From the NCBI GenBank assembly GCA_965223855.1, contig CBDCXM010000009.1, forward strand, positions 2,208,001 through 2,272,000: DNA of 64,000 nt, written 5' to 3'. Shown in pieces: positions 1-62,210 of the stretch (the stretch's first letter is position 1; each line of letters starts with the position of its first letter). The DNA comes from Candidatus Multivoradales bacterium (GTDB taxonomy: Bacteria > Acidobacteriota > Thermoanaerobaculia > Multivoradales > JAHEKO01). The notes under the pieces were generated by a model. The model had not been told where the DNA came from. It saw only the letters and a program-made list of their open reading frames with translations, and ran no database searches. The position numbers were made by a program, and so were the translations under genes.

Positions 1-591
1 ACTCAGGGGTTCTTCGCCGTCGCCCGGACCTGCCCGCAGTGCCGCGGCGAGGGCGAGGTGATCACCGACCCGTGTCGCGACTGCAAGGGACGTGGACGGG
101 TCGAGCAGGTACGGCAGGTCGGCATCAGTGTACCGGCCGGAGTCGACACCGGCACTCGCCTGCGCCGTGCCGGAGAAGGGGAGCACGGGCCTCGAAACGG
201 TCCGCCGGGCGACCTCTACATCGACGTCATCGTCGAACCGCACGATCGCTTCGAGCGTCACGGCAACGACATCCTCGGGTCTGTCGAGGTGAGCTTTCCC
301 GAGGCGGTGCTGGGCGCGAAGGTCGAGGTGGAGACGCTTCACGGTACGGAGAGCCTCGAGATTCCGGCGGGCAGCCGTCATGGAGCTCACTTCAGGTTGC
401 GCGGCAAGGGGGTCGACCAGCTCGGCGGACGGGGGCGCGGCGATCACGTCGTCTCCCTCGAGCTCGCCGTGCCGCGGCCGAAGGATCTCGACGACGAGCG
501 ACTCGAAGTGCTCCAGAAGTGGGCCGACGAGGACGGCAGCGAGATCCGCGAGCGCCGGGTGCTCGACCGGGTGAAGGACCTCTTCGGTTGA
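1..591 (+). CDS. dnaJ: Chaperone DnaJ, C-terminal part (5' truncated by window edge)
   Basis: Frame open from base 1: CPQCRGEG and CRDCKGRG zinc-finger repeats, PAGVDTG, GPPGDLY, RGDH C-terminal motifs; followed by rsmE. Confidence 0.95.
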   Translation, partial: TQGFFAVARTCPQCRGEGEVITDPCRDCKGRGRVEQVRQVGISVPAGVDTGTRLRRAGEGEHGPRNGPPGDLYIDVIVEPHDRFERHGNDILGSVEVSFPEAVLGAKVEVETLHGTESLEIPAGSRHGAHFRLRGKGVDQLGGRGRGDHVVSLELAVPRPKDLDDERLEVLQKWADEDGSEIRERRVLDRVKDLFG

Positions 592-1310
592 CGCGGGCTT
601 CGGCGGGGCGCTTGCGGGCGACCGTCGTGGTCGATCCGGATCGCTTCGGCCGTTCGTCGATCGAGGTCGAGGGCGACCTGTATCGCCACCTCTTCCGAGC
701 TCGAAGGCTCGCCGTGGGAGACGGGCTGCGGGTGGTCGATGGTGCCGGGCGAGCGAAGGCGGCGGTCGTCGCCGACGTCTCCCGCGACAGCGCGCTCCTG
801 GAACTGGGGGAGACGCTCGCTTCGCCCGAGCCGCGCCATGACCTCGAGCTGTGGGTCGCGCCGCCGAAGCCGGAGCGAGCCGCCTGGCTCGTCGAGAAGG
901 CGACCGAACTCGGCGTGAGCGCGGTCCGCTGGCTGCGAACGGAGAGAAGCGGTCCCGGTTACCGCGAAGGAGCGCTCGAACGCCAGCGCAGAGTCGCGAT
1001 CGCGGCCCTCCAGCAGTGCGGTGGAGCCCGGCTGCCGGAACTCTCCGGGCCTCACTCGTTCGAGAACCGCCCCGAGTCGGCCGGCCAGCTTCTGGTGCTC
1101 GATCCCGACGGTGCGCCGCTCGCCGCTGCGCCGAGCGGCGCGGCGACGATCGTGGTCGGCCCCGAGGGTGGTTTCGTCCAGGCGGAGCTCGACGCCCTCG
1201 GGGCGGCGGGAGCGAGCCGTTGGAGGCTCGGTGCCCGCACGCTGAGGGTCGAAACTGCAGCCGTCGTCGCCGCCGGCCGCCTGCTCACCGGCACCGGAGC
1301 CCCGGCTTGA
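588..1310 (+). CDS. rsmE: 16S rRNA m3U1498 methyltransferase RsmE
   Basis: EKATELGV, IVVGPEGGF, LGARTLRVETAA motifs; TTG start at 588 overlaps dnaJ stop (start inferred). Confidence 0.92.
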   Translation: MTRASAGRLRATVVVDPDRFGRSSIEVEGDLYRHLFRARRLAVGDGLRVVDGAGRAKAAVVADVSRDSALLELGETLASPEPRHDLELWVAPPKPERAAWLVEKATELGVSAVRWLRTERSGPGYREGALERQRRVAIAALQQCGGARLPELSGPHSFENRPESAGQLLVLDPDGAPLAAAPSGAATIVVGPEGGFVQAELDALGAAGASRWRLGARTLRVETAAVVAAGRLLTGTGAPA

Positions 1311-2650
1311 TCCCGGAGCGGCTCTCACGCTGGCGCTCGGCCGGTCGTCGACTCGTCCGCGGCCGACCGGTGCTGGAAGCGGTCGCCTCGGGCGCGATGG
1401 CGCTCGGCAGGGCGCTCGTCGCCGGCTTCTACCGGGTCGCCCTGAGCCCGTTCGGCAGGGTGCGGCGGAGGGCCGACGCCGCGGTGCAGGCGGAAATCGA
1501 GGCTCGCACCGATGCGTACAACGAGGCGGCCGAGGACTACTTTCGCGACTTCCACGACCCGGGATTTCTGCGCAACAAGCCGTTCTCGGAGGCGGACGGC
1601 TTCGCCGATCGGCTGTTCAACCTGGGCGTGCTCTTCCGCGGCGCCCGGTTGCGCCCGGGGGACGTCGTTCTCGACTTCGGCGCCGGCAGCTGCTGGATGT
1701 CGCACTTCCTTCACCGCTACGGCTGCAAGACCTACTCGGTCGACGTCTCGGAGACGGCGCTCGCCCTCGGTCGCCGACTGTTCGAGGAGGACTCGAACAC
1801 CGACTGGGCCCTCGAGCCGGAGTTCGTCCTCTACGACGGGCACTCGATCCCGCTGCCGGACGACTGTTGCGACAAGATCCTCGTCAACGACGCCTTCCAC
1901 CACGTCCCCAATCAGCGTCGGATCCTCACCGAGTTCGCCCGCCTGCTGCGGCCGGACGGCATCGTGGCGATGCGCGAGCCGGGCCAGGAGCACACGGCGA
2001 ACCCCGAGACGGTCGAGGAGGCGAAGCTGGGAGTGCTCGAGAACGACATCTTCGTCGAGGATCTGGCGCTGCTGGCCGCTGAGTGCGGTCTCGCGGGGGC
2101 GACGCTCATCCCGGCGAGTGCCGATGCGCTGATCGAGATCGACGCCGCCGACCTCGGGCCGTTCATGCGGGGCAAGGGGTTTCCCCACTACTGGTGGACT
2201 CTGTGCCGAACGCTCGAGCACGGACATTTCCTCTTCCTGCGGCCTTCACGGGTACCGACGACTCGTGCGCCGCGGCTGCTGAGCGCCGAGATCTGGGTGC
2301 TCGGGAGTTCCACGCTCCACGCCCGGCCCGGCGAGGCACTGCCGGTGCGTGTCGCCGTCCGCAACTGTGGCGACACGACCTGGCTTGGAGCCGACTCCCA
2401 CGGGACGCCCGGCTGGACCCGACTCGGAGTCCATCTCGAGGGGGCGGGGCGATCCGACTACGACTGGCTGCGCGCCGAGCTGCCGCGCGACATGCCGCCG
2501 CTCGACAGGGTGGAGCTCGAACTGGAGCTGCCGCCCCTGGAGCGCCCGGGCGACTACCGCGTCAGCTTCGAAATGGTGATCGAAGGGCGGCAGTGGTTCG
2601 CCACTCCCGGTGAAGATCTCTTCGAGGTGTCGCTGGTCGTCGGCGAGTGA
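1307..2650 (+). CDS. Class I SAM-dependent methyltransferase with C-terminal beta-rich (Ig-like) extension
   Basis: VLDFGAGSCW motif I, DAFHHVP, RLLRPDG; C-terminal VRNCGDTTW...PGDYRVSFEMVIEGRQWF; start either TTG 1307 or ATG 1397. Confidence 0.8.
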   Translation: MIPERLSRWRSAGRRLVRGRPVLEAVASGAMALGRALVAGFYRVALSPFGRVRRRADAAVQAEIEARTDAYNEAAEDYFRDFHDPGFLRNKPFSEADGFADRLFNLGVLFRGARLRPGDVVLDFGAGSCWMSHFLHRYGCKTYSVDVSETALALGRRLFEEDSNTDWALEPEFVLYDGHSIPLPDDCCDKILVNDAFHHVPNQRRILTEFARLLRPDGIVAMREPGQEHTANPETVEEAKLGVLENDIFVEDLALLAAECGLAGATLIPASADALIEIDAADLGPFMRGKGFPHYWWTLCRTLEHGHFLFLRPSRVPTTRAPRLLSAEIWVLGSSTLHARPGEALPVRVAVRNCGDTTWLGADSHGTPGWTRLGVHLEGAGRSDYDWLRAELPRDMPPLDRVELELELPPLERPGDYRVSFEMVIEGRQWFATPGEDLFEVSLVVGE

Positions 2651-2789
2651 ACCGCGCCGGGTGCCGCCGCTGCAACGGTTTGCGTTGGCCCGTAACCTAC
2701 CGTCCTGCTAGGCTTTTCGGTCAACGAACCGAGTGTCGAGGCTCGACCGGCCGCCGCCGGTCGGTCGCCGAGCACAACGAGAGGCTGCC

Positions 2790-3953
2790 ATGAGCATCAA
2801 CGACCTTCTCAAAGTCGCCGTCGAGCGCGAGGCGTCGGACCTTCACCTGAAGGTCGGCAATCACCCGGTGCTGCGCATCAACGGGCGGCTCCACCCGATG
2901 CTGGAGATCAACCGCCTGATGCAGGACGACACGGCGGCCATGGCGTTCTCGATCATGAACGCCCGCCAGAAGCAGCGCTTCAAGGAGGACCTCGAGATCG
3001 ACATCGGCTACTCGGTCCCGGGGCTCGGGCGCTTCCGCTGCAACGTCTTCCAGCAGCGCGGCGCGGTCGGACTGGTGCTGCGTGTCATCCCGACCACCAT
3101 CCTCGGGGTCCGGGAACTCATGCTGCCGCCGGTGATCGAGAAGATCGCCGAAGAGCAGCGCGGTCTGGTGCTCGTGACCGGCACTACCGGCTCGGGTAAG
3201 TCGACGACACTCGCCGCGATGATCGACCACATCAACGAGCGCCGCACCGAGCACGTCGTGACGATCGAGGATCCGATCGAGTTCATCCATCAGGACAAGA
3301 AGTCGCTCGTCAATCAGCGTGAACTCGACGTCGACACGCGCGGCTTCGCGCCGGCGCTGCGATCCGCATTGCGTCAGGACCCCGACGTCATCCTCGTCGG
3401 TGAGATGCGCGACTACGAGACGATCGAGACCGCGCTGCTGGCGGCCGAGACCGGCCATCTGGTGCTCTCGACCCTCCATACCCTCGACGCCACCGAGACG
3501 GTCAACCGCATCATCGCCGTCTTCCCGCCGCATCAGCAGAAGCAGATCCGCATCCAGCTCTCGCAGGTACTCAAGGCGATCATCTCTCAGCGCCTGATGC
3601 CGCGAGCGGACGGGGTCGGCCGGGTGCCGGCGGCCGAGATCCTGCTGGCGACCGCCTACATCCGCGACTGCATCGAGAACAAGGAAAAGACCAAGTACAT
3701 CCGCGAGCAGATCGCCCTCGGCACGAGCCAGTACGGCATGCAGACCTTCGACCAGTCGCTCTACCACCTCTACGAGAGCGGTCTCATCACCTTCGACGAG
3801 GCTCTGCGCAGGGCGTCGAACCCGGACGAGTTCAAGCTCAAGGTCCAGGGTGTTCAGTTCACCTCCGACGCGGCTCGCGAGCAGATGGAGTCGTCGCTCG
3901 AGATGTCGAGCGGCTTCGGCGGCGGTGGCATCGACGATGCCGTCGAGCCCTGA
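2790..3953 (+). CDS. pilT: PilT/PilU-family type IV pilus retraction ATPase
   Basis: ASDLHL, Walker A GTTGSGKST, TIEDPIE, LRQDPDVILVGEMRD, GHLVLSTLH, GMQTFDQ. Confidence 0.9.
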   Translation: MSINDLLKVAVEREASDLHLKVGNHPVLRINGRLHPMLEINRLMQDDTAAMAFSIMNARQKQRFKEDLEIDIGYSVPGLGRFRCNVFQQRGAVGLVLRVIPTTILGVRELMLPPVIEKIAEEQRGLVLVTGTTGSGKSTTLAAMIDHINERRTEHVVTIEDPIEFIHQDKKSLVNQRELDVDTRGFAPALRSALRQDPDVILVGEMRDYETIETALLAAETGHLVLSTLHTLDATETVNRIIAVFPPHQQKQIRIQLSQVLKAIISQRLMPRADGVGRVPAAEILLATAYIRDCIENKEKTKYIREQIALGTSQYGMQTFDQSLYHLYESGLITFDEALRRASNPDEFKLKVQGVQFTSDAAREQMESSLEMSSGFGGGGIDDAVEP

Positions 3954-55730: not shown

Positions 55731-55911
55731 ACCCCGGCTTCACCGACGAGGGAGCGAGCGCTCCACGTCGAGGCTGGTTCGCCGGAGCGCTCGAAGAGTG
55801 TCCTCGACGGAGGACGCTGGAGAGGTCCTACAAGCCGACGAGCCTGCTGTTCAGGGCACTCTCGAACCGGCATGGATTGTGAAGCTCCAGCCGGGCAAGG
55901 AGGTAGCAGCC

Positions 55912-56625
55912 ATGAAACGACCCGTCCTCGTCCTAGCCCTCGCCACCCTCGCCATCACCGTCGGCGGCGCGTTCGAGCCCGCCGAGGCGGGGCGATTGCG
56001 ATGGCACGCCGGCGCCGACTTCCGAGTCGGTGGGTTCGACTTCTCGATCGGTTTCAGCGGGCCCCAGCACTACGGGATCGACTACCGTCCCGACTTCTAC
56101 TACCGGACCCGGGCGCCACTGCGCTACGCCGGCTACCAGTGCAGCTCGGCGTGCTACATGCGGGATTCGTGGAGCTACCACCACCGCTCCTGCCCCGTGG
56201 TAGGTCACCACTTCGCCCTCGGCGGATTCGACCCGTACCCCGCCTGGCACCACGTCCAGTACGCCTGGTTCGGCGGCTATCCGGCACCCTGGTACTACAC
56301 CTACCGGGACCACGACTACCGCCGTTACGGGTATCGCGACTACGGGTACCACGGGCGTCGCCACTACGGCCACAAGTACAGGGGACACGGACACGGATAC
56401 GGCCACTACAAGGGCCGCGGACGTGGTCACTACAAGGGGCATCGCTCCGATGACCGGTACGACCGGCGCTACGACCGGCGTGACCACCGACGAGACGACC
56501 GTCGCTACGAGCGCCGCGACCCGCGGGACCTGCGTCGCTACGATCGGGACAAGGCCTATCCGCGTCACAGGGACGATCGCGACCGCGACGATCGCCGTCG
56601 CCGCGGCCGGCGCGACGACGACTGA
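55912..56625 (+). CDS. Secreted hypothetical protein, Tyr/His/Gly-rich with Arg/Asp-rich tail
   Basis: AAGGAGG SD; signal peptide ending PAEA; low-complexity YGH/YDRR C-terminus. Confidence 0.8.
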   Translation: MKRPVLVLALATLAITVGGAFEPAEAGRLRWHAGADFRVGGFDFSIGFSGPQHYGIDYRPDFYYRTRAPLRYAGYQCSSACYMRDSWSYHHRSCPVVGHHFALGGFDPYPAWHHVQYAWFGGYPAPWYYTYRDHDYRRYGYRDYGYHGRRHYGHKYRGHGHGYGHYKGRGRGHYKGHRSDDRYDRRYDRRDHRRDDRRYERRDPRDLRRYDRDKAYPRHRDDRDRDDRRRRGRRDDD

Positions 56626-56671
56626 GCGCCGCCCCTTCCGCCCGAAGATTCAGCGCCCTGCGACCCAACCT

Positions 56672-56700
56672 CGCCCGGCCGGCTCCCGGCCGGGCGTTTC
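56672..56700 (+). terminator. Hairpin between convergent genes, probable terminator
   Basis: Perfect 11-bp stem CGCCCGGCCGG / CCGGCCGGGCG, loop CTC, followed by TTTC. Confidence 0.65.
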
Positions 56701-56745
56701 CCTGCCCGCCCGGCCTGCGAGATCAGGAGCCGCTCAGAAGGTCGC

Positions 56746-57543
56746 TCAGAGGGCCGGCTCGGTTCTGGCGAGTTCCCAGGCCGACGCCTCCAGGACGCCG
56801 CGAGGGTGGCCGACGTCGAACAGCGGCCCGGGGAGCGGGGCGGCGACGAGGCGGCCTTCGAGAGCGAGCTGCTGGACAGCCGGTACTTCCGAGGACTCGC
56901 CCGCCGTGCCTTTCCCGAGTCTGCCCTCCAGCAGTTCAAAAAAGCCCGGCTGGAAGACGTAGCGCCCGCACGCCCGCCAGTGCGTCCCGTCGGTGAGTTC
57001 CAGTCTGCCGGTTCCCTTTCCTGCCAGACGTCGAACCCTCAGCAGGGCCCCCTCGGGCTCGACTTCGAGCAGCCCCGAGTTGCCGTAGCGTCCGCTGTCG
57101 GCGGCCGTCACCTCGAGCGCTCCGACGACATGGTCGCCGGTGGCCGAGGCTGCCGTGCAGAGGTGAGCGGTCGTCGCCGGCTGCCCGGGGAAGAGGTTGT
57201 CGGGGAGGAGCACCGCCCACGGGCGGGCACCGACCCAGTCGCGCGCCAGCATGAGCGCATGCCCGAGCCCCTCGGCCACCGGCTGCTCCAGATAGACGAC
57301 CTCGACCCCCTCCAACTCGCCGCGCGTCCGGAGGTCGTCGAGCGCCCGGCGCACCAGCCCCTTGTGCGGGCCGACGATGACCCCCAGATTCCGGATACCG
57401 GCCTCGACCGCCTCGGCGACGATCCACTCCAGCGCCGGGCGGCTGCCGATCGGCACCAGCTCCTTGGGCACGAGAGTGGAGAAGGGCTTCATGCGGGTGC
57501 CGTGACCGGCGGCCGGGATGACGGCGTGTCGGATTCGAGTCAT
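56746..57543 (-). CDS. Sugar-1-phosphate nucleotidyltransferase (GalU-like)
   Basis: AVIPAAG.GTRM.P....PKE..P, EQ....GLGHA, LLPD, GRYV, DVG. Confidence 0.88.
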   Translation of the reverse strand: MTRIRHAVIPAAGHGTRMKPFSTLVPKELVPIGSRPALEWIVAEAVEAGIRNLGVIVGPHKGLVRRALDDLRTRGELEGVEVVYLEQPVAEGLGHALMLARDWVGARPWAVLLPDNLFPGQPATTAHLCTAASATGDHVVGALEVTAADSGRYGNSGLLEVEPEGALLRVRRLAGKGTGRLELTDGTHWRACGRYVFQPGFFELLEGRLGKGTAGESSEVPAVQQLALEGRLVAAPLPGPLFDVGHPRGVLEASAWELARTEPAL

Positions 57544-57552
57544 GGGTCTGGC

Positions 57553-57597
57553 TCCACTCGTCAGGACTCTACTCTCCAGGACCCTGCTCTTCAGAAC
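57553..57597. repeat. Three imperfect 15-bp tandem repeats spanning the kinase stop codon
   Basis: tccactcgtcaggac / tctactctccaggac / cctgctcttcagaac. Confidence 0.65.
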
Positions 57598-58781
57598 GGG
57601 GCGGCTACGGCGACGGCCCCGTCGGCCGCCCGGCAGGTGAACCAGTGGGGACGGCGACCGAACCGTTCCTCGAAGGCGTCGCACGTCGCGAGGGCGACGG
57701 CATCGGCCCGACCGGTCTGCACGAGTGCACACACACAACCCCCGAAGCCCCCGCCCGACAGTCGCGCACCGTCGCAGCCCTGCGCCCCGTTGAGGCTCGC
57801 CGCGAGAAGATCGAGCTCGGCGATCGAGACTTCGTAGAGGTCTCTGGAGCTGGCGTGGGAAGCGGCCAGGAGCGGGCCGATCTCGGGGGTGCGGCCTTCC
57901 TCGAGCAGCTCCCAGGCCCGGCGGACCCGCTCGCACTCTTCGACGACGTGCCTGGCACGGCGGTACTCCACCGGGGATAGAAGCTCGGCGTGTCGTTCGA
58001 GATCGGGCATCGTGAGGTCGCGCAGCGTCGCGAGCGGCAGCCCCAGTCGCCGCAGGGAGTCCAGAGCGGATTCCGCCTCGCTGCGACGGTCGTTGAAGCC
58101 GCTCGCCCCGAGGCGGCGCCGGACGCCGCTGTCGACGACGAGGAACGAACGATCGGGAGCGATCGGCAGATGCCGATAGTCCAGGTCGCGGCAGTCGAGC
58201 GCCAGGAGTTGCGACTCGCGTCCGACGAGGCAGGCGAGTTGGTCCATGATCCCGGAGCCGACTCCGAGATAGTGGTTCTCGGCGTGCCGGCCGAGCGCCG
58301 CGAGCTCGGTGTCGGCAAGCGACCAGCCGGCGACCGCGGCCCAGATCCGCAGCAGACCGACCTCCACCGCCGCGGAGGAGCTCACGCCGGCACCGCGTGG
58401 GAGATCGCCGCCGAAGGCGACGTCCAGCCCCGGCAGTTCGAGCCCGCGGTCGAGGCAGGCGGCGGCGACGCCGGCCGGCAGGTCGGACCAGTGAGAGGGA
58501 CGCCCGTCGGCGACCGGCGGTGGCGGGAGAGCGTCGAGCTCGAACTCGGCCACCTCGTCGCCATAGTCGAGGGCGAGCAGTCGAAGACGGCGATCCGGGC
58601 GTGTAGCTGCAGCGAAGTCGAGTCCGCGGTCGATCGCCGCCGGAAGCACCAGACCCTCGTGGTAGTCGACATGAGCGCCGAGCAGGTTGATCCTCCCCGG
58701 TGCGTGAGCGAGCCAGCCGGGCTCTCGCTCGAAACGCCGGCGGAAACGGGCTGCGGCCGGACTCGCTCCGTCGGGCTCCAT
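57591..58781 (-). CDS. GHMP sugar kinase, galactokinase family (atypical sugar-binding motif)
   Basis: PGRINLLGAHVDY, P.GAGVSSSAA, GIMDQ, RARHV, SH.S.RD.YEVS, GARLSGGGFGG. Confidence 0.9.
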   Translation of the reverse strand: MEPDGASPAAARFRRRFEREPGWLAHAPGRINLLGAHVDYHEGLVLPAAIDRGLDFAAATRPDRRLRLLALDYGDEVAEFELDALPPPPVADGRPSHWSDLPAGVAAACLDRGLELPGLDVAFGGDLPRGAGVSSSAAVEVGLLRIWAAVAGWSLADTELAALGRHAENHYLGVGSGIMDQLACLVGRESQLLALDCRDLDYRHLPIAPDRSFLVVDSGVRRRLGASGFNDRRSEAESALDSLRRLGLPLATLRDLTMPDLERHAELLSPVEYRRARHVVEECERVRRAWELLEEGRTPEIGPLLAASHASSRDLYEVSIAELDLLAASLNGAQGCDGARLSGGGFGGCVCALVQTGRADAVALATCDAFEERFGRRPHWFTCRAADGAVAVAAPF

Positions 58782-58806
58782 CGCGGAGGTATTGTAGGCG
58801 TCCTTC

Positions 58807-60924
58807 ATGGCACGCGAACGCTTCGAGCTGGATCGCGACTGGAGGTTTCGCCTCGGCAAACCCCGTCGCGGCGAGACCTCTCGTGACTGGGAGCAGGTGG
58901 CTCTGCCGCATTGCTGGAACGCCCAGGACACCTTCCAGCGGGGGCTGCGCTACTACCGCGGGCCTGGCGTCTACGAGCGCGAGTTCGAGCTGCCGGCGGA
59001 ACTGGAGGAGGAGCGGCCCGGCGGCTGGTGGCTGGTGGTGGGGGGCTTCTACGGCCGCGCGACGGTCGAGCTCGACGGCCGCCGGCTGGGACGCTTCGAG
59101 GGGCAGTACCTCGGCTTCGACTGCCCGCTTCCCGGAATCACGTCGGGCCGGACGCACCGGCTGCGGATCGAGGCGACCAACCGCTGTCCCGACTGGATGC
59201 CTCCAGGCACCTCGGCGCCCGATTTCCTGCTCTTCGGAGGTCTGTCGGGGCGGGTGCGTCTCGAGCGAAGGTCGCCTTGCCACCTCGACCCGGGGAGGCT
59301 CAGGCTGGTGCCGCACGATCTGCTCGCATCGCCCGAGTTGGAGCTCTCCTTCGGAGTCACGGGCCGCATCGGTCCGGAGCTCGCGACCGTCCGTTGGAGC
59401 CTCTACGACCCGGAAGGAGCGAGCGTCGCCGAGGGGCTCGCGCCGATCGGCGGCGACGGAACAGCGAGCGCCGATTGCGAGCTCGAGGCGGCCTGCCTCT
59501 GGTCTCCGGAGACACCGCGTCTCTACGAGCTCCACTGTGGACTCGAGATCGGCGGCGCGATCGTCGACTCCTCGGCGACCCGTCTCGGCCTGCGCGAGGC
59601 TCGCTTCGACGCCGACGGCTTCGAACTCAACGGAGAGCGGCGCCGGTTGCGCGGTTTCAACCGTCACGAGTGTCTGCCGGGGTTGGGCAACGCGCTGCCG
59701 CGCTGGATGCACCGTCAGGATGCCCACGACCTCAAGCGGCTCGGTGCGGACTTCGTCCGCCTGTCTCACTACCCTCAGCAGCCCGACTTCCTCGACGCGT
59801 GCGACGAGCTCGGGCTGATCGTCTACGCGGAACTCGCTTCCTGGAAGAGCGTTCGGGCAGGGCGCTGGCTCCGTGCCGCCCTTCGCCAGATGGAGGCGAT
59901 GATCCGACGCGATCGGCATCGACCTTCGATCGTCCTCTGGGGGATGGGGAACGAGTCGCAGCACCGGCGTGCCTACGTCGCCCTCGATCGGCTGATCCAG
60001 CGGCTCGATCCGACCCGCCCCTCGACCTACGCCGAGAATCACCTCTACCGCGCACGGCGTGCCCGCACGCTCGGCATCCCGGGGGTCTGGGGCCTCAACT
60101 ACGAGGTCGAGGTGCTCGACGAGGTGCGTCACCAATGCCGCACCGGCGCGGTCGTCGTGGCAGAGGCGTGCAACGAGCAGGCGGTGCGGGGCGAGGTCGA
60201 GGAGGAACGTGCGCAGATTGCCGCGATCGAGGCCTTCTGGGAGGCGATCGACGGGAAGCCGTACGTCGCCGGCCATACGCTGTGGGCCTTCAACGACTAC
60301 CCGACGATGTTCCGTGACCGCTTCATCCGCCGCACCGGCAAGGTCGATGCCTGGAGGCTTCCGAAGCTCGCGGCGCACCGCTTCCGCGCGCGCTACGCGG
60401 CGGAGCCGTTCATCGAGCTGGTGGGTGCGTGGGAAGAGGGCGGCGGAGTCGTCGAGGTCGACTGCTTCACCAACTGCTCCGTCCTCGAACTGCGAGTCGG
60501 GGGGAGGGAACTGACCGGGGTCGAGCAGGGGGTGGAGTATCAGCTTCTGAGAATCCCGTTCGCTCACGCGCCGCTCGAAGCGACGGGACGACGGGAGGGC
60601 ACCGTGGTCGAGGCGGCGCTGCGGCCTCGCGGCAGGGCCCACCGCTTGGCGATCGAGCAGGACGAGGCCTCCGCCGCCAGCGACTGGCGCGGCCTGCAGT
60701 TGCGCGTGCTCGACGAGGCGGGTTTCCCGGTGACCTCCTGGTCTGGCGAGGCGCGCCTGGCGTTGCGCGGTCGAGCCCGCTCCGGCGCCTTCACGGCGGA
60801 CGGGCGGGTGGTCGTCGCCCGCGGTATCGGCCGCACCTTCGTCCGCCTGGACGGCGAGGGCGTCGCCGTCGAAGCGAGTGCCGACGGGCTCGAAGCCGCC
60901 GCAGTCAGACTGCGGCCCTTGTGA
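58807..60924 (+). CDS. Glycoside hydrolase family 2 (beta-galactosidase/beta-glucuronidase family)
   Basis: LPHCWN, WSPETP.LY, GFNRHE, RLSHYPQ, CDELG, WGMGNE acid/base, W.FNDY; no obvious signal peptide. Confidence 0.9.
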   Translation: MARERFELDRDWRFRLGKPRRGETSRDWEQVALPHCWNAQDTFQRGLRYYRGPGVYEREFELPAELEEERPGGWWLVVGGFYGRATVELDGRRLGRFEGQYLGFDCPLPGITSGRTHRLRIEATNRCPDWMPPGTSAPDFLLFGGLSGRVRLERRSPCHLDPGRLRLVPHDLLASPELELSFGVTGRIGPELATVRWSLYDPEGASVAEGLAPIGGDGTASADCELEAACLWSPETPRLYELHCGLEIGGAIVDSSATRLGLREARFDADGFELNGERRRLRGFNRHECLPGLGNALPRWMHRQDAHDLKRLGADFVRLSHYPQQPDFLDACDELGLIVYAELASWKSVRAGRWLRAALRQMEAMIRRDRHRPSIVLWGMGNESQHRRAYVALDRLIQRLDPTRPSTYAENHLYRARRARTLGIPGVWGLNYEVEVLDEVRHQCRTGAVVVAEACNEQAVRGEVEEERAQIAAIEAFWEAIDGKPYVAGHTLWAFNDYPTMFRDRFIRRTGKVDAWRLPKLAAHRFRARYAAEPFIELVGAWEEGGGVVEVDCFTNCSVLELRVGGRELTGVEQGVEYQLLRIPFAHAPLEATGRREGTVVEAALRPRGRAHRLAIEQDEASAASDWRGLQLRVLDEAGFPVTSWSGEARLALRGRARSGAFTADGRVVVARGIGRTFVRLDGEGVAVEASADGLEAAAVRLRPL

Positions 60925-60938
60925 TCTACTCTGGCGCC

Positions 60939-62210
60939 ATGACCGAGTCGCCGGAAGCGCGCGTCCTGGAACGCTCCGAGCACCCGATCTCGCGCAGGAA
61001 CATCGGCGCCGAGGCCCTCAAGGTCCTGAAGCGCCTCGACGGCCGCGGCTTCAAGGGCTACCTGGTCGGCGGCGGTGTTCGCGACCTGATGCTGGGGCGG
61101 ACGCCGAAGGACTTCGATATCGCGACCGACGCCAGTCCCGGTCAGGTCAAGCGGCTGTTTCGCAACTCGAGGATCATCGGCCGGCGATTCCGGCTGGCGC
61201 ACGTGTTCTTCGGGCCGACGATCATCGAGGTGGCGACGTTCCGGCGCGACCCCGATCCGCAGGGGCAGAAGTCCCCTCCCGGGGACCTGCTGATCACGAG
61301 CGACAACGAGTTCGGAACCCCCCGTGAGGACGCCTTCCGGCGAGACTTCACGGTCAACGCGCTCTTCTACGACATCTCGAGCTTCACGGTCCTCGACTAC
61401 GTCGGCGGCATCGAGGATCTCGCCGACGGCGTCATCCGGACGATCGGAGACCCCGAGGTTCGCTTCTGCGAGGACCCGGTCAGGATGATGCGCGCCTGCG
61501 AGATGGCGGGGCGGCTCGACTTCACCATCGACCGTGCCTCGCAGGAGGCGATCCAGAGTCTCGCCCGCGAGATCGAGAAGGCGGCGCCGGCGCGGATGAC
61601 GGAAGAGATCGTCCAGCTGCTCCGATGCGGAGCCGCCGGGCCGTCGATGCAGTGGATGCACGACCTCGACCTGCTCGACATCGTGCTGCCGGAGGCGGCC
61701 GTCGTCCTGGAAGCCAGGAAGCACGGGCTCGACGACTTCGAGATGCTCGTGCCGGCGATCGACAGGCTGGTGAACGACGGCTGTCAGCTCAGCGATCCGA
61801 CCCTCCTGGCGGCGCTGTTGCTGCCGACGGTTCTCCTCGAGCGGCGCGAGGTGGAGACGTCGACGGGCCGGCGGATCCTGAGACGGCGGTTGCGCAGACT
61901 GACGGAAGACGTCGCCGCACCGTTCTTCTCGCGCCTCACCCTGGCGAAGTTCAAGTCCGAAGCCGCACTCCAGGCGCTCGACACCTTCCACAGTCTCGGC
62001 GAGCGCAACTGGAACCTGCAGGAGCGGATCCAACTTGCCAGGCGGGCGTCGTTCGGCGACGCTCTCGATCTGTTTCGGATCCTCGTGGCGACCACCGGCG
62101 AAGGGGAGGCGGAGTACGCGGCGTGGGAGCGGGTGCGTCGCGAGGTCCCCGGTCGCAAACGGCCGGCCCGGCCGCGCCGTCGGCGACGGCGCCGGGGACG
62201 TCGGCGCTAG
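60939..62210 (+). CDS. pcnB: Poly(A) polymerase I
   Basis: YLVGGGVRD, PKDFDIAT, IIGRRFRLAHV (PAP-specific signature), RRDFTVN, EDPVRMMRA, Arg-rich C-terminus. Confidence 0.92.
   Translation: MTESPEARVLERSEHPISRRNIGAEALKVLKRLDGRGFKGYLVGGGVRDLMLGRTPKDFDIATDASPGQVKRLFRNSRIIGRRFRLAHVFFGPTIIEVATFRRDPDPQGQKSPPGDLLITSDNEFGTPREDAFRRDFTVNALFYDISSFTVLDYVGGIEDLADGVIRTIGDPEVRFCEDPVRMMRACEMAGRLDFTIDRASQEAIQSLAREIEKAAPARMTEEIVQLLRCGAAGPSMQWMHDLDLLDIVLPEAAVVLEARKHGLDDFEMLVPAIDRLVNDGCQLSDPTLLAALLLPTVLLERREVETSTGRRILRRRLRRLTEDVAAPFFSRLTLAKFKSEAALQALDTFHSLGERNWNLQERIQLARRASFGDALDLFRILVATTGEGEAEYAAWERVRREVPGRKRPARPRRRRRRRGRRR

Follow-up and report, generated by a model that had tools for sequence, protein, structure and literature searches.

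A glycosidase, kinase and nucleotidyltransferase gene trio from an acidobacterial genome as a candidate GalT-independent sugar-salvage pathway

Gene content and layout of the locus

The window analysed here, a 64,000-nucleotide stretch of a Candidatus Multivoradales bacterium genome (contig CBDCXM010000009.1, positions 2,208,001 to 2,272,000), carries three adjacent genes that automatic annotation names galactokinase, GalU and beta-galactosidase, and that are thus readily misread as a galactose operon. They encode a GalU-like sugar-1-phosphate nucleotidyltransferase (P0002; 56746-57543, minus strand, 265 amino acids, PF00483), a GalK-family anomeric sugar kinase of the Ala45 (GAHVDY) clade (P0003; 57591-58808, minus strand, 405 amino acids from the first ATG), and a glycosidase of glycoside hydrolase family 2 (GH2) that is predicted to be cytoplasmic (P0004; 58807-60924, plus strand, 705 amino acids, PF02836 and PF00703). 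This trio recurs in other genomes and in more than one gene order, its kinase belongs to a clade that has replaced a glutamate of canonical galactokinases, and it is not a Leloir galactose operon.

The transferase gene lies 47 nt downstream of the kinase gene on the same strand, with no terminator-like site in the gap, while the GH2 and kinase genes are divergent, the first kinase ATG and the GH2 ATG overlapping in a CATG (58778-58809 region). An alternative kinase start, the ATG at 58780, gives the 396-amino-acid form found as protein database entry P0005 and leaves 26 bp between the kinase and GH2 genes. With starts that overlap or lie 26 bp apart, both promoters must be located inside the neighbouring coding region, or else the transcripts are leaderless; a scan of positions 56400-61200 found neither a sigma-70-like promoter nor an intrinsic terminator. 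Read directly, the N-terminus of the GH2 enzyme (MARERFELDRDWRF...) is without a hydrophobic signal-like stretch, and from this leaderless N-terminus we take P0004 to be cytoplasmic. Gene positions and strands thus bear out the earlier note on this DNA, made from the sequence alone, which had described a GH2 without an obvious signal peptide divergent from a kinase and a nucleotidyltransferase. That note had also found no galT or galE in the window, and this holds more widely: GalT (PF01087) has no match anywhere in the source genome, which is 92.5% complete, and of seven GalE-like matches in that genome, all under the TIGR01179 cut-off, none falls in the window. The nearest named records, from sequence matches, are labelled Thermoanaerobaculia or Acidobacteria.

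An atypical clade of GalK-family kinases

The kinase contains the Pfam domains PF10509, PF00288 and PF08544 and aligns to human GALK1 over its full length (HMMER, E 1.9e-53, about 32% identity). Its AlphaFold2 (AF2) model, with a predicted local distance difference test (pLDDT) value of 91.2, matches the structure of GALK1 with galactose at template modelling (TM) scores of 0.85-0.87, and the catalytic residues Arg39, Asp48 and Asp189 (GALK1 Arg37, Asp46 and Asp186) are retained and invariant. The segment GRINLLGAHVDY of the kinase pairs with the GEH motif of GALK1, placing Ala45 at the position of Glu43, and SGFNDRR pairs with the Tyr236 motif, placing Phe238 at the position of Tyr236; both motif departures that had been picked out previously from the letters alone are therefore confirmed by alignment. 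On the basis of GalK structures, we take Glu43 to contact the C6 hydroxyl of galactose and Tyr236 its C4 hydroxyl. In the plant galacturonokinase (GalAK), the galactokinase Glu position is reportedly taken by Ala-41 (Yang et al., 2009); the change A41E is reported to abolish GalAK activity, and Y250F to admit glucuronic acid (GlcA).

We found no literature on an E43A galactokinase variant, and a protein atlas search with the kinase returned generic galactokinase clusters only. A 498-residue protein of solved structure, AbGHMP (PDB 9ulx), matches the N-terminal half of the kinase (E 1.7e-25), and no literature naming it was found.

Loss of the glutamate is a property of the whole clade rather than of this one protein. 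Position 45, called by regular expression, is Ala in 99 and Gly in 8 of 119 listed non-self homologues and Glu in none, the motif pattern being unmatched in the remaining 12, so that Ala or Gly occupies this position in all 107 homologues with a match. A wider aligned set of 283 distinct kinases comprised 140 with Ala, 10 with Gly, 131 with Glu, 1 with Asp and 1 with Asn, and we refer to the first two groups together as A/G-type and to the third as Glu-type. The tyrosine position is Tyr in 131 of 131 Glu-type sequences vs a mixture of 101 Phe, 41 Tyr and 8 Leu among the 150 A/G-type ones. The two groups also differ near the active-site motifs, with W53 in place of F, S321 in place of L, V359 in place of T and F379 in place of Y in the A/G group, as well as S185 in place of C immediately before the G-I-M-D-Q motif. 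A short loop insertion containing an arginine (Arg103) is present in 115 of the 150 A/G-type sequences, and most Glu-type sequences are without the insertion. The earlier note had tied its reading to conservation of both substitutions among orthologues, and only the first stood: Glu is replaced by Ala or Gly in 107 of 107 homologues and in 14 of 14 kinases linked to a P0004-like GH2, whereas Phe replaces Tyr in only 9 of these 14.

A FastTree phylogeny of 186 sequences filtered to <80% identity placed 63 of 71 A/G-type sequences in a single clade (support 1.0) that includes no Glu-type sequence. The other eight (loci L041, L043, L060, L064, L195, L200, L207 and L251) fall outside this clade and carry Planctomycetota (five), Gemmatimonadota, Chloroflexia and haloarchaeon (one each) labels, which suggests independent losses of the glutamate. 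One of these outlying kinases (L195) is encoded by an open reading frame (ORF) with an N-terminal extension of ~350 residues. A metagenome scan added L101 as the one clear A-type locus, with L103 as a probable second. At the former (positions 1-3339), a TRAP-transporter DctM permease gene stands upstream of an Ala45-type kinase with Leu at the tyrosine position; this is a single case, and TRAP systems usually carry carboxylates.

Absence of GalT and recurrence of the trio

Kinase neighbourhoods were compared across 205 deduplicated loci with 5 kb of flanking sequence, 58 of them A/G-type and 147 Glu-type among the matches listed. Pattern-based kinase searches had returned mostly Glu-type sequences, the peptide pattern fitting both types, and these loci served as controls. 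GalT lies within 5 kb of none of the 58 A/G-type kinases vs 28 of the 147 Glu-type ones, a P0002-like transferase near 5 vs 0, a glycoside hydrolase of family GH20 near 31 vs 0, and a P0004-like GH2 near 1 vs 4, figures that overstate independence as a single family supplies most of the A/G set and its genomes are interrelated. In one set of ten galT-adjacent kinase loci, all kinases were Glu-type, again among the matches listed.

The same division holds at the level of whole genomes. Five of five relatives with A-type kinases, 98-100% complete, are without any GalT (PF01087) match, as is the source genome, which also has no second GalK, while GalT is present in five of five control genomes of the same phylum with verified Glu-type kinases. 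With GalT missing from all six A/G-type genomes and found in all five controls, the trio is not a Leloir galactose operon, as had been suspected from the window alone. A-type kinases of other lineages were seen next to genes for AceK, a PHB regulator, a polyprenyl synthase and a selenophosphate-synthetase-like fusion, neighbours that offered no lead.

That kinases of this type might accompany the other two genes elsewhere had likewise been raised previously, and a survey anchored on 80 GH2 loci (alignment A3) shows that they do. A GalK-like kinase is present at 15 of the 80 loci (14 detected by tblastn, and L304 by ORF clustering), and 14 of these 15 also carry a nucleotidyltransferase, either P0002-like or composed of an NTP_transferase domain with hexapeptide repeats. 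Three gene orders were distinguished, with the kinase divergent from GH2 as in the window, with GH2 followed by the kinase and a convergent transferase (L337), or with a convergent transferase-kinase pair after GH2 (11 loci). Loci of the third order encode kinases that are more remote GalK relatives (33-39% identity) and transferases of another subfamily, which combines NTP_transferase with a hexapeptide repeat. Of 14 GH2-linked kinases, counting that of the window and excluding that of L304, 13 have Ala and 1 has Gly at position 45. All 15 loci bear Acidobacteriota-type labels except for one labelled Deltaproteobacteria. Because the association has been kept through rearrangement and through replacement of partner subtypes, we regard it as the main support for a common pathway.

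Close relatives of the locus show both conservation and loss of the arrangement. The trio has the divergent layout of the window in L227/L286 (identity of 56% for the kinase, 46% for the transferase and 45% for GH2) and also in L287, while L272 has a GH2 gene (54% identity) in divergent orientation to a kinase fragment that lies at the contig end, and shares the downstream synteny of the window, namely a poly(A)-polymerase-like gene followed by succinate dehydrogenase. Twelve genomes of the window's order encode a kinase of at least 49% identity, and a P0002-like transferase is found in three of them: the source genome, G005, in which it is adjacent, upstream and on the same strand, and G131, in which it lies 1.8 kb from the kinase. 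None of nine genomes of genus g7 has this transferase (genome-survey tallies include G024, G049 and G152, on which no individual claim depends). The trio is thus not universal in the kinase clade.

Beside the trio in the window, an ORF at ~55900-56625 (plus strand) combines a signal-like N-terminus (MKRPVLVLALATLAIT...), a Tyr/His/Gly-rich region and an Arg/Asp-rich low-complexity tail.

The glycosidase and its genomic contexts

The GH2 enzyme is recognised by PF02836 (Pfam, E 1.9e-31) along with PF00703. All 32 aligned family members keep its two catalytic glutamates, E383 (within W-G-M-G-N-E) and E453, and 112 of 120 members carry the W-G-M-G-N-E motif; hence P0004 should be an active retaining glycosidase, as judged from sequence. 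The N-terminal 400 residues are matched about equally by gut beta-glucuronidases and beta-galactosidases. More informative is a loop reading W-x-F-x-D-Y...R-x-R-F-x-R-R-T-G, which has R-R-T-G where the fungal glucuronidase 5C70 has N-K-K-G, in an alignment of low segment score that is anchored by W-x-F-x-D-[FY] and R-x-P-K. Of the 81 family members with a loop match (120 examined), 79 have the loop arginine, the position reading R-x-[TSCAPN]. Two further conserved arginines precede it, and R415, R417 and R508 are invariant among the 32 aligned sequences. Among PDB entries, 6HPD matches the loop segment best (E 5.3e-8) and has R-A-S-G at this point, and we found no literature on 6HPD as a GH2 enzyme. 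P0004 thus lacks the canonical beta-glucuronidase (GUS) motif and yet resembles a solved non-canonical glucuronidase at the site predicted to face C6.

Outside of the Acidobacteriota, this GH2 family is frequent in Kiritimatiellia, Lentisphaerae/Victivallales and Verrucomicrobia. In these groups, the gene immediately after GH2 encodes a GT4 glycosyltransferase or an O-antigen-ligase-like protein, and a WaaP/Kdo-kinase-family protein and a GT9 heptosyltransferase are encoded nearby in the same clusters, which resemble lipopolysaccharide (LPS) core loci (within L290-L362, e.g. L294, L295, L302, L331, L346, L354, L357 and L361). GT4 is among the neighbours at 44 of the 80 GH2 loci, a WaaP-like gene at 15 and Wzy_C at 11. 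These contexts link the GH2 family with the building of envelope glycans and not with sugar breakdown, in keeping with an anabolic salvage role for the trio. No role proposed for an envelope-linked cytoplasmic GH2 family was found in the literature.

The nucleotidyltransferase

P0002 matches PF00483 (E 9.2e-17), carries an N-terminal loop of the G-x-G-T-R type (A-A-G-H-G-T-R), and finds its top PDB matches among GalU-type UDP-glucose (uridine diphosphate glucose) pyrophosphorylases (2UX8, E 1.4e-30; 5J49; 7O2N). Its best NCBIfam model, TIGR01099 galU, scores 114.1 bits, far below the cut-off of 326.8. Defining canonical GalU as a TIGR01099 match at E 1e-40 or better, we found it in 314 of the 401 genomes sampled from the phylum and in 0 of 18 from the window's order, while P0002-like genes occur in 23 of the 401. 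That P0002 might be just an additional copy alongside a normal GalU was rejected on the grounds of this absence from all 18 genomes. In family f15, 12 of 15 genomes have a P0002-like gene and 1 of 15 a canonical GalU, and the P0002-like enzyme probably serves there as the UDP-glucose pyrophosphorylase. Only three genomes of the window's order have a P0002-like enzyme, though canonical GalU is absent from 18 of 18. A search for eukaryote-type UDPGP returned no match, and was silent in the controls too.

A proposed salvage pathway and its substrate

In the pathway that we favour, the cytoplasmic GH2 enzyme would act on a glycoside, imported or endogenous, and free a beta-linked sugar, which the GalK-family kinase would phosphorylate at C1, and the GalU-like transferase would use a nucleoside triphosphate, probably UTP, to convert the sugar-1-phosphate into a nucleoside diphosphate (NDP)-sugar that would feed glycan synthesis or interconversion. 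We consider such a GalT-independent route, from glycosidase through anomeric kinase to NDP-sugar, quite probable as read from gene association and predicted enzyme activities. The sugar is most likely not plain galactose, and its C6 most likely not a free hydroxymethyl.

The earlier note had gone further and proposed that the substrate is a uronic acid, GlcA or galacturonic acid (GalA), and this is the full reading that we also retain, with a probability of roughly 0.4: a hexuronic acid (GlcA and/or GalA) would be released, phosphorylated and activated, and the loss of Glu in the kinase and the Arg-rich loop on the C6 side of the GH2 active site would both accommodate its carboxylate. The glycosidase-kinase-transferase logic of that proposal stands, as the trio recurs and GalT is missing, and the identity of the sugar as a uronic acid is partly supported by the clade-wide Ala and by the loop arginine common to P0004 and 6HPD. 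The source genome also encodes three NDP-sugar dehydrogenases, so that uronic acids are probably present in the glycans of this organism.

Several observations weigh against a uronic acid. Loss of the glutamate would equally suit a pentose, a 6-deoxy or a 6-sulfated sugar, and the second substitution is not conserved, with 9 Phe vs 5 Tyr in the 14 GH2-linked kinases. The N-x-K motif of glucuronidases, which binds the glucuronate carboxylate, is absent from P0004; among curated models, that of a beta-galactosidase, NF041462 (229.6 bits, cut-off 900), ranks first and outscores those for glucuronidases; and the PDB fold neighbours of its AF2 model (pLDDT 90.5) mix beta-galactosidases and beta-glucuronidases, 6HPD included. 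P0002-like genes stand without a nearby kinase in eight of eight loci of other Acidobacteriota families, indicating that this transferase family is not dedicated to the kinase, and P0002 may simply be a UDP-glucose pyrophosphorylase. Same-clade kinases are moreover found in GH20 operons of a sister family whose genomes are without the P0002-like transferase (0 of 9) and the P0004-type GH2 (0 of 3), and the interrelatedness of the A/G-type genomes noted above belongs here as well.

These GH20 operons are the starting point for the alternative that survives best, in which the same three-step salvage would act on another sugar, be it an N-acetylhexosamine, a pentose without a C6 (L-arabinose or xylose), or a 6-sulfated or 6-deoxy hexose; on balance, we find this rather unlikely. 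In the sister family, the operon comprises GH20, a small gene, a GyrI-like gene and, last, an Ala45-type kinase (e.g. L091, 6202-10651). It was found at loci L083-L091, L183 and L190-L255, labelled Candidatus Multivorans, Thermoanaerobaculia or Holophagales, and its kinases all have Phe at the tyrosine position. At L083, judging by size, a PIN/antitoxin-like pair is apparently inserted between GH20 and the kinase. GH20 enzymes release N-acetylhexosamines, and N-acetylglucosamine 1-phosphate would need only GlmU, so the operons point to an N-acetylhexosamine in that family. To our knowledge, however, GH2 enzymes do not release N-acetylhexosamines, and the absence of P0004-type GH2 from the GH20-operon genomes means that the two contexts may serve different sugars. 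Beta-hexosaminidase and beta-glucuronidase alternate on glycosaminoglycan-type chains, and one could speculate that GH20-linked and GH2-linked kinases share a single substrate class. For a pentose, a published bacterial pair of galactokinase and glucose-1-phosphate uridylyltransferase that converts xylose to UDP-xylose (PMC11267548) offers a precedent, but a pentose requires no Arg-rich loop. As for sulfated sugars, a lambda-carrageenan-active GH2 is among the fold neighbours of P0004, and the Kiritimatiellia, Lentisphaerae and Verrucomicrobia in which its family is common are known for degrading sulfated glycans; against this, no sulfatase was seen among the recurrent neighbours.

Galactose itself could be salvaged by an Isselbacher-type route, in which the GH2 enzyme would be a beta-galactosidase, the kinase an atypical galactokinase, and the transferase would replace GalT by making UDP-galactose from galactose 1-phosphate, with a GalE-like epimerase linking this to UDP-glucose; we judge this unlikely. 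The curated models speak on both sides, as the kinase exceeds the cut-off of the NCBIfam galactokinase model TIGR00131 (268.2 vs 226.65 bits) but falls under those of the other four (NF003472, 301 of 499 bits; NF003705, 282 of 385; NF003006, 262 of 443; NF001816, 198 of 509), while the top curated match of the GH2 is, as noted above, a beta-galactosidase model, homologue records are named galactokinase and beta-galactosidase, and GalE-like genes are present in the genome. Glu-type kinases also adjoin distant GH2 genes at two loci (L094 and L095). That the route is real is apparent from natural bacterial GalK-UDPGP fusions. Eleven fused GalK proteins were found, with GalT, UDPGP or, in one, an ABC-transporter as the partner domain, none of them seen to contain an A-type kinase, though this counts as weak evidence; seven have a recognisable galactokinase motif, in each case Glu-type, and three GalK-UDPGP and three GalT-GalK metagenomic fusions (P0126-P0131) all keep both Glu and Tyr. 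Use of a pyrophosphorylase in place of GalT alone therefore does not explain the substitutions, and the galactose-binding Glu is replaced across the whole clade of the window kinase. The Arg-rich loop of P0004 is likewise unlike the C-H-H-G that the Paracoccus beta-galactosidase 5EUV has at this site.

Finally, it is very unlikely that the three genes share no pathway, with a housekeeping UDP-glucose pyrophosphorylase (no gene of this genome, from which canonical GalU is missing, is a better GalU-like match than P0002, and the P0002 family stands alone elsewhere), an envelope-glycan GH2 (kinase-free LPS-core-like clusters hold this family in the Planctomycetes-Verrucomicrobia-Chlamydiae (PVC) phyla) and a kinase merely located between them (the transferase is near only 5 of 58 A/G-type loci), as 14 further loci combine these genes, in three orders and with kinases and transferases of non-orthologous subtypes, a pattern that chance adjacency or shared ancestry alone explains poorly, and as kinase and transferase lie 47 nt apart on one strand without a terminator-like site.

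Significance

If the trio acts on a uronic or other non-galactose sugar, its kinase would represent a new specificity class in a textbook enzyme family, and a plant-like route of nucleotide-sugar salvage would be added to bacteria. In its broadest form, which we advance only tentatively, the proposal would make this the first bacterial hexuronate 1-kinase and UDP-hexuronate pyrophosphorylase, recycling GlcA or GalA to UDP-uronic acid for envelope glycans together with an Arg-type GH2 beta-hexuronidase; the Ala45 clade, with hundreds of environmental sequences, would consist of non-galactose anomeric kinases, and the GH2 family would be a conserved and unrecognised component of LPS-core clusters in PVC bacteria. 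The analysis also draws attention to a cytoplasmic GH2 family associated with envelope-glycan clusters across several phyla. A practical gain could be a stable enzyme for making GalA-1-phosphate, GlcA-1-phosphate and UDP-uronic acids: according to one report, GalA-1-phosphate is no longer commercially available, and the plant GalA kinase was too unstable and weakly active (PMC7984243).

Relation to known systems

The logic of the trio, in which a sugar is converted to its 1-phosphate and then to a UDP-sugar by the products of adjacent genes that feed envelope synthesis, is that of AmgK-MurU and NahK. AmgK and NahK differ from the window kinase in having an aminoglycoside-phosphotransferase-type fold and in acting on N-acetylmuramic acid, N-acetylglucosamine and N-acetylgalactosamine. 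Salvage by a sugar-1-kinase and a pyrophosphorylase is already established in plants and in a few bacterial cases, and a bacterial uronate version was not found in print: a search of the open-access literature, partly judged by titles, found no bacterial galacturonokinase or glucuronokinase and no Ala45 kinase clade, and by their titles the galacturonokinase papers concern plants only.

The closest counterpart is plant GalA salvage by Arabidopsis GalAK (At3g10700) and UDP-sugar pyrophosphorylase (Sloppy/USP), where an anomeric kinase of the GalK family acts first and a pyrophosphorylase then forms the UDP-sugar (PMC8636097, PMC6329318). The trio differs in its small GalU-type transferase, which replaces a eukaryote-type USP, and in its linked glycosidase gene, and its activities are predicted ones. 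Among bacteria, ScGalK and ScGPUT of Solitalea canadensis convert free xylose to UDP-xylose through a promiscuous galactokinase and a UDP-glucose pyrophosphorylase (PMC11267548). This pair resembles the trio in that a bacterial GalK-type kinase and a uridylyltransferase lead from free sugar to UDP-sugar without GalT, but it rests on enzyme promiscuity, and the consulted sections of that work mention no linked glycosidase.

On the side of the glycosidase, gut-microbial and E. coli-type GUS enzymes and the beta-galacturonidase 6NCW are among the best matches, in sequence and fold, to the N-terminal 400 residues of P0004 and have the catalytic Glu pair in common with it, whereas the N-x-K carboxylate motif that defines the GUS enzymes is missing from P0004. 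The 990-residue chain of 6HPD, whose substrate is taken from the entry title ('The structure of a beta-glucuronidase from glycoside hydrolase family 2'), has R-x-[ST]-G-x-V-D-A-x-R-L-P-K in common with P0004 in place of N-x-K-G, yet it is longer, ~20% identical overall, and aligns weakly around the acid/base motif. As for the kinase, it retains the fold, the catalytic Arg and Asp and the ATP-binding motifs of the Leloir galactokinases of E. coli, Lactococcus lactis (1PIE) and human (GALK1; 1WUU/6GR2), but stands apart from them by its Ala for Glu43 and Phe for Tyr236, by its separate clade, and by never lying beside galT in the loci examined.

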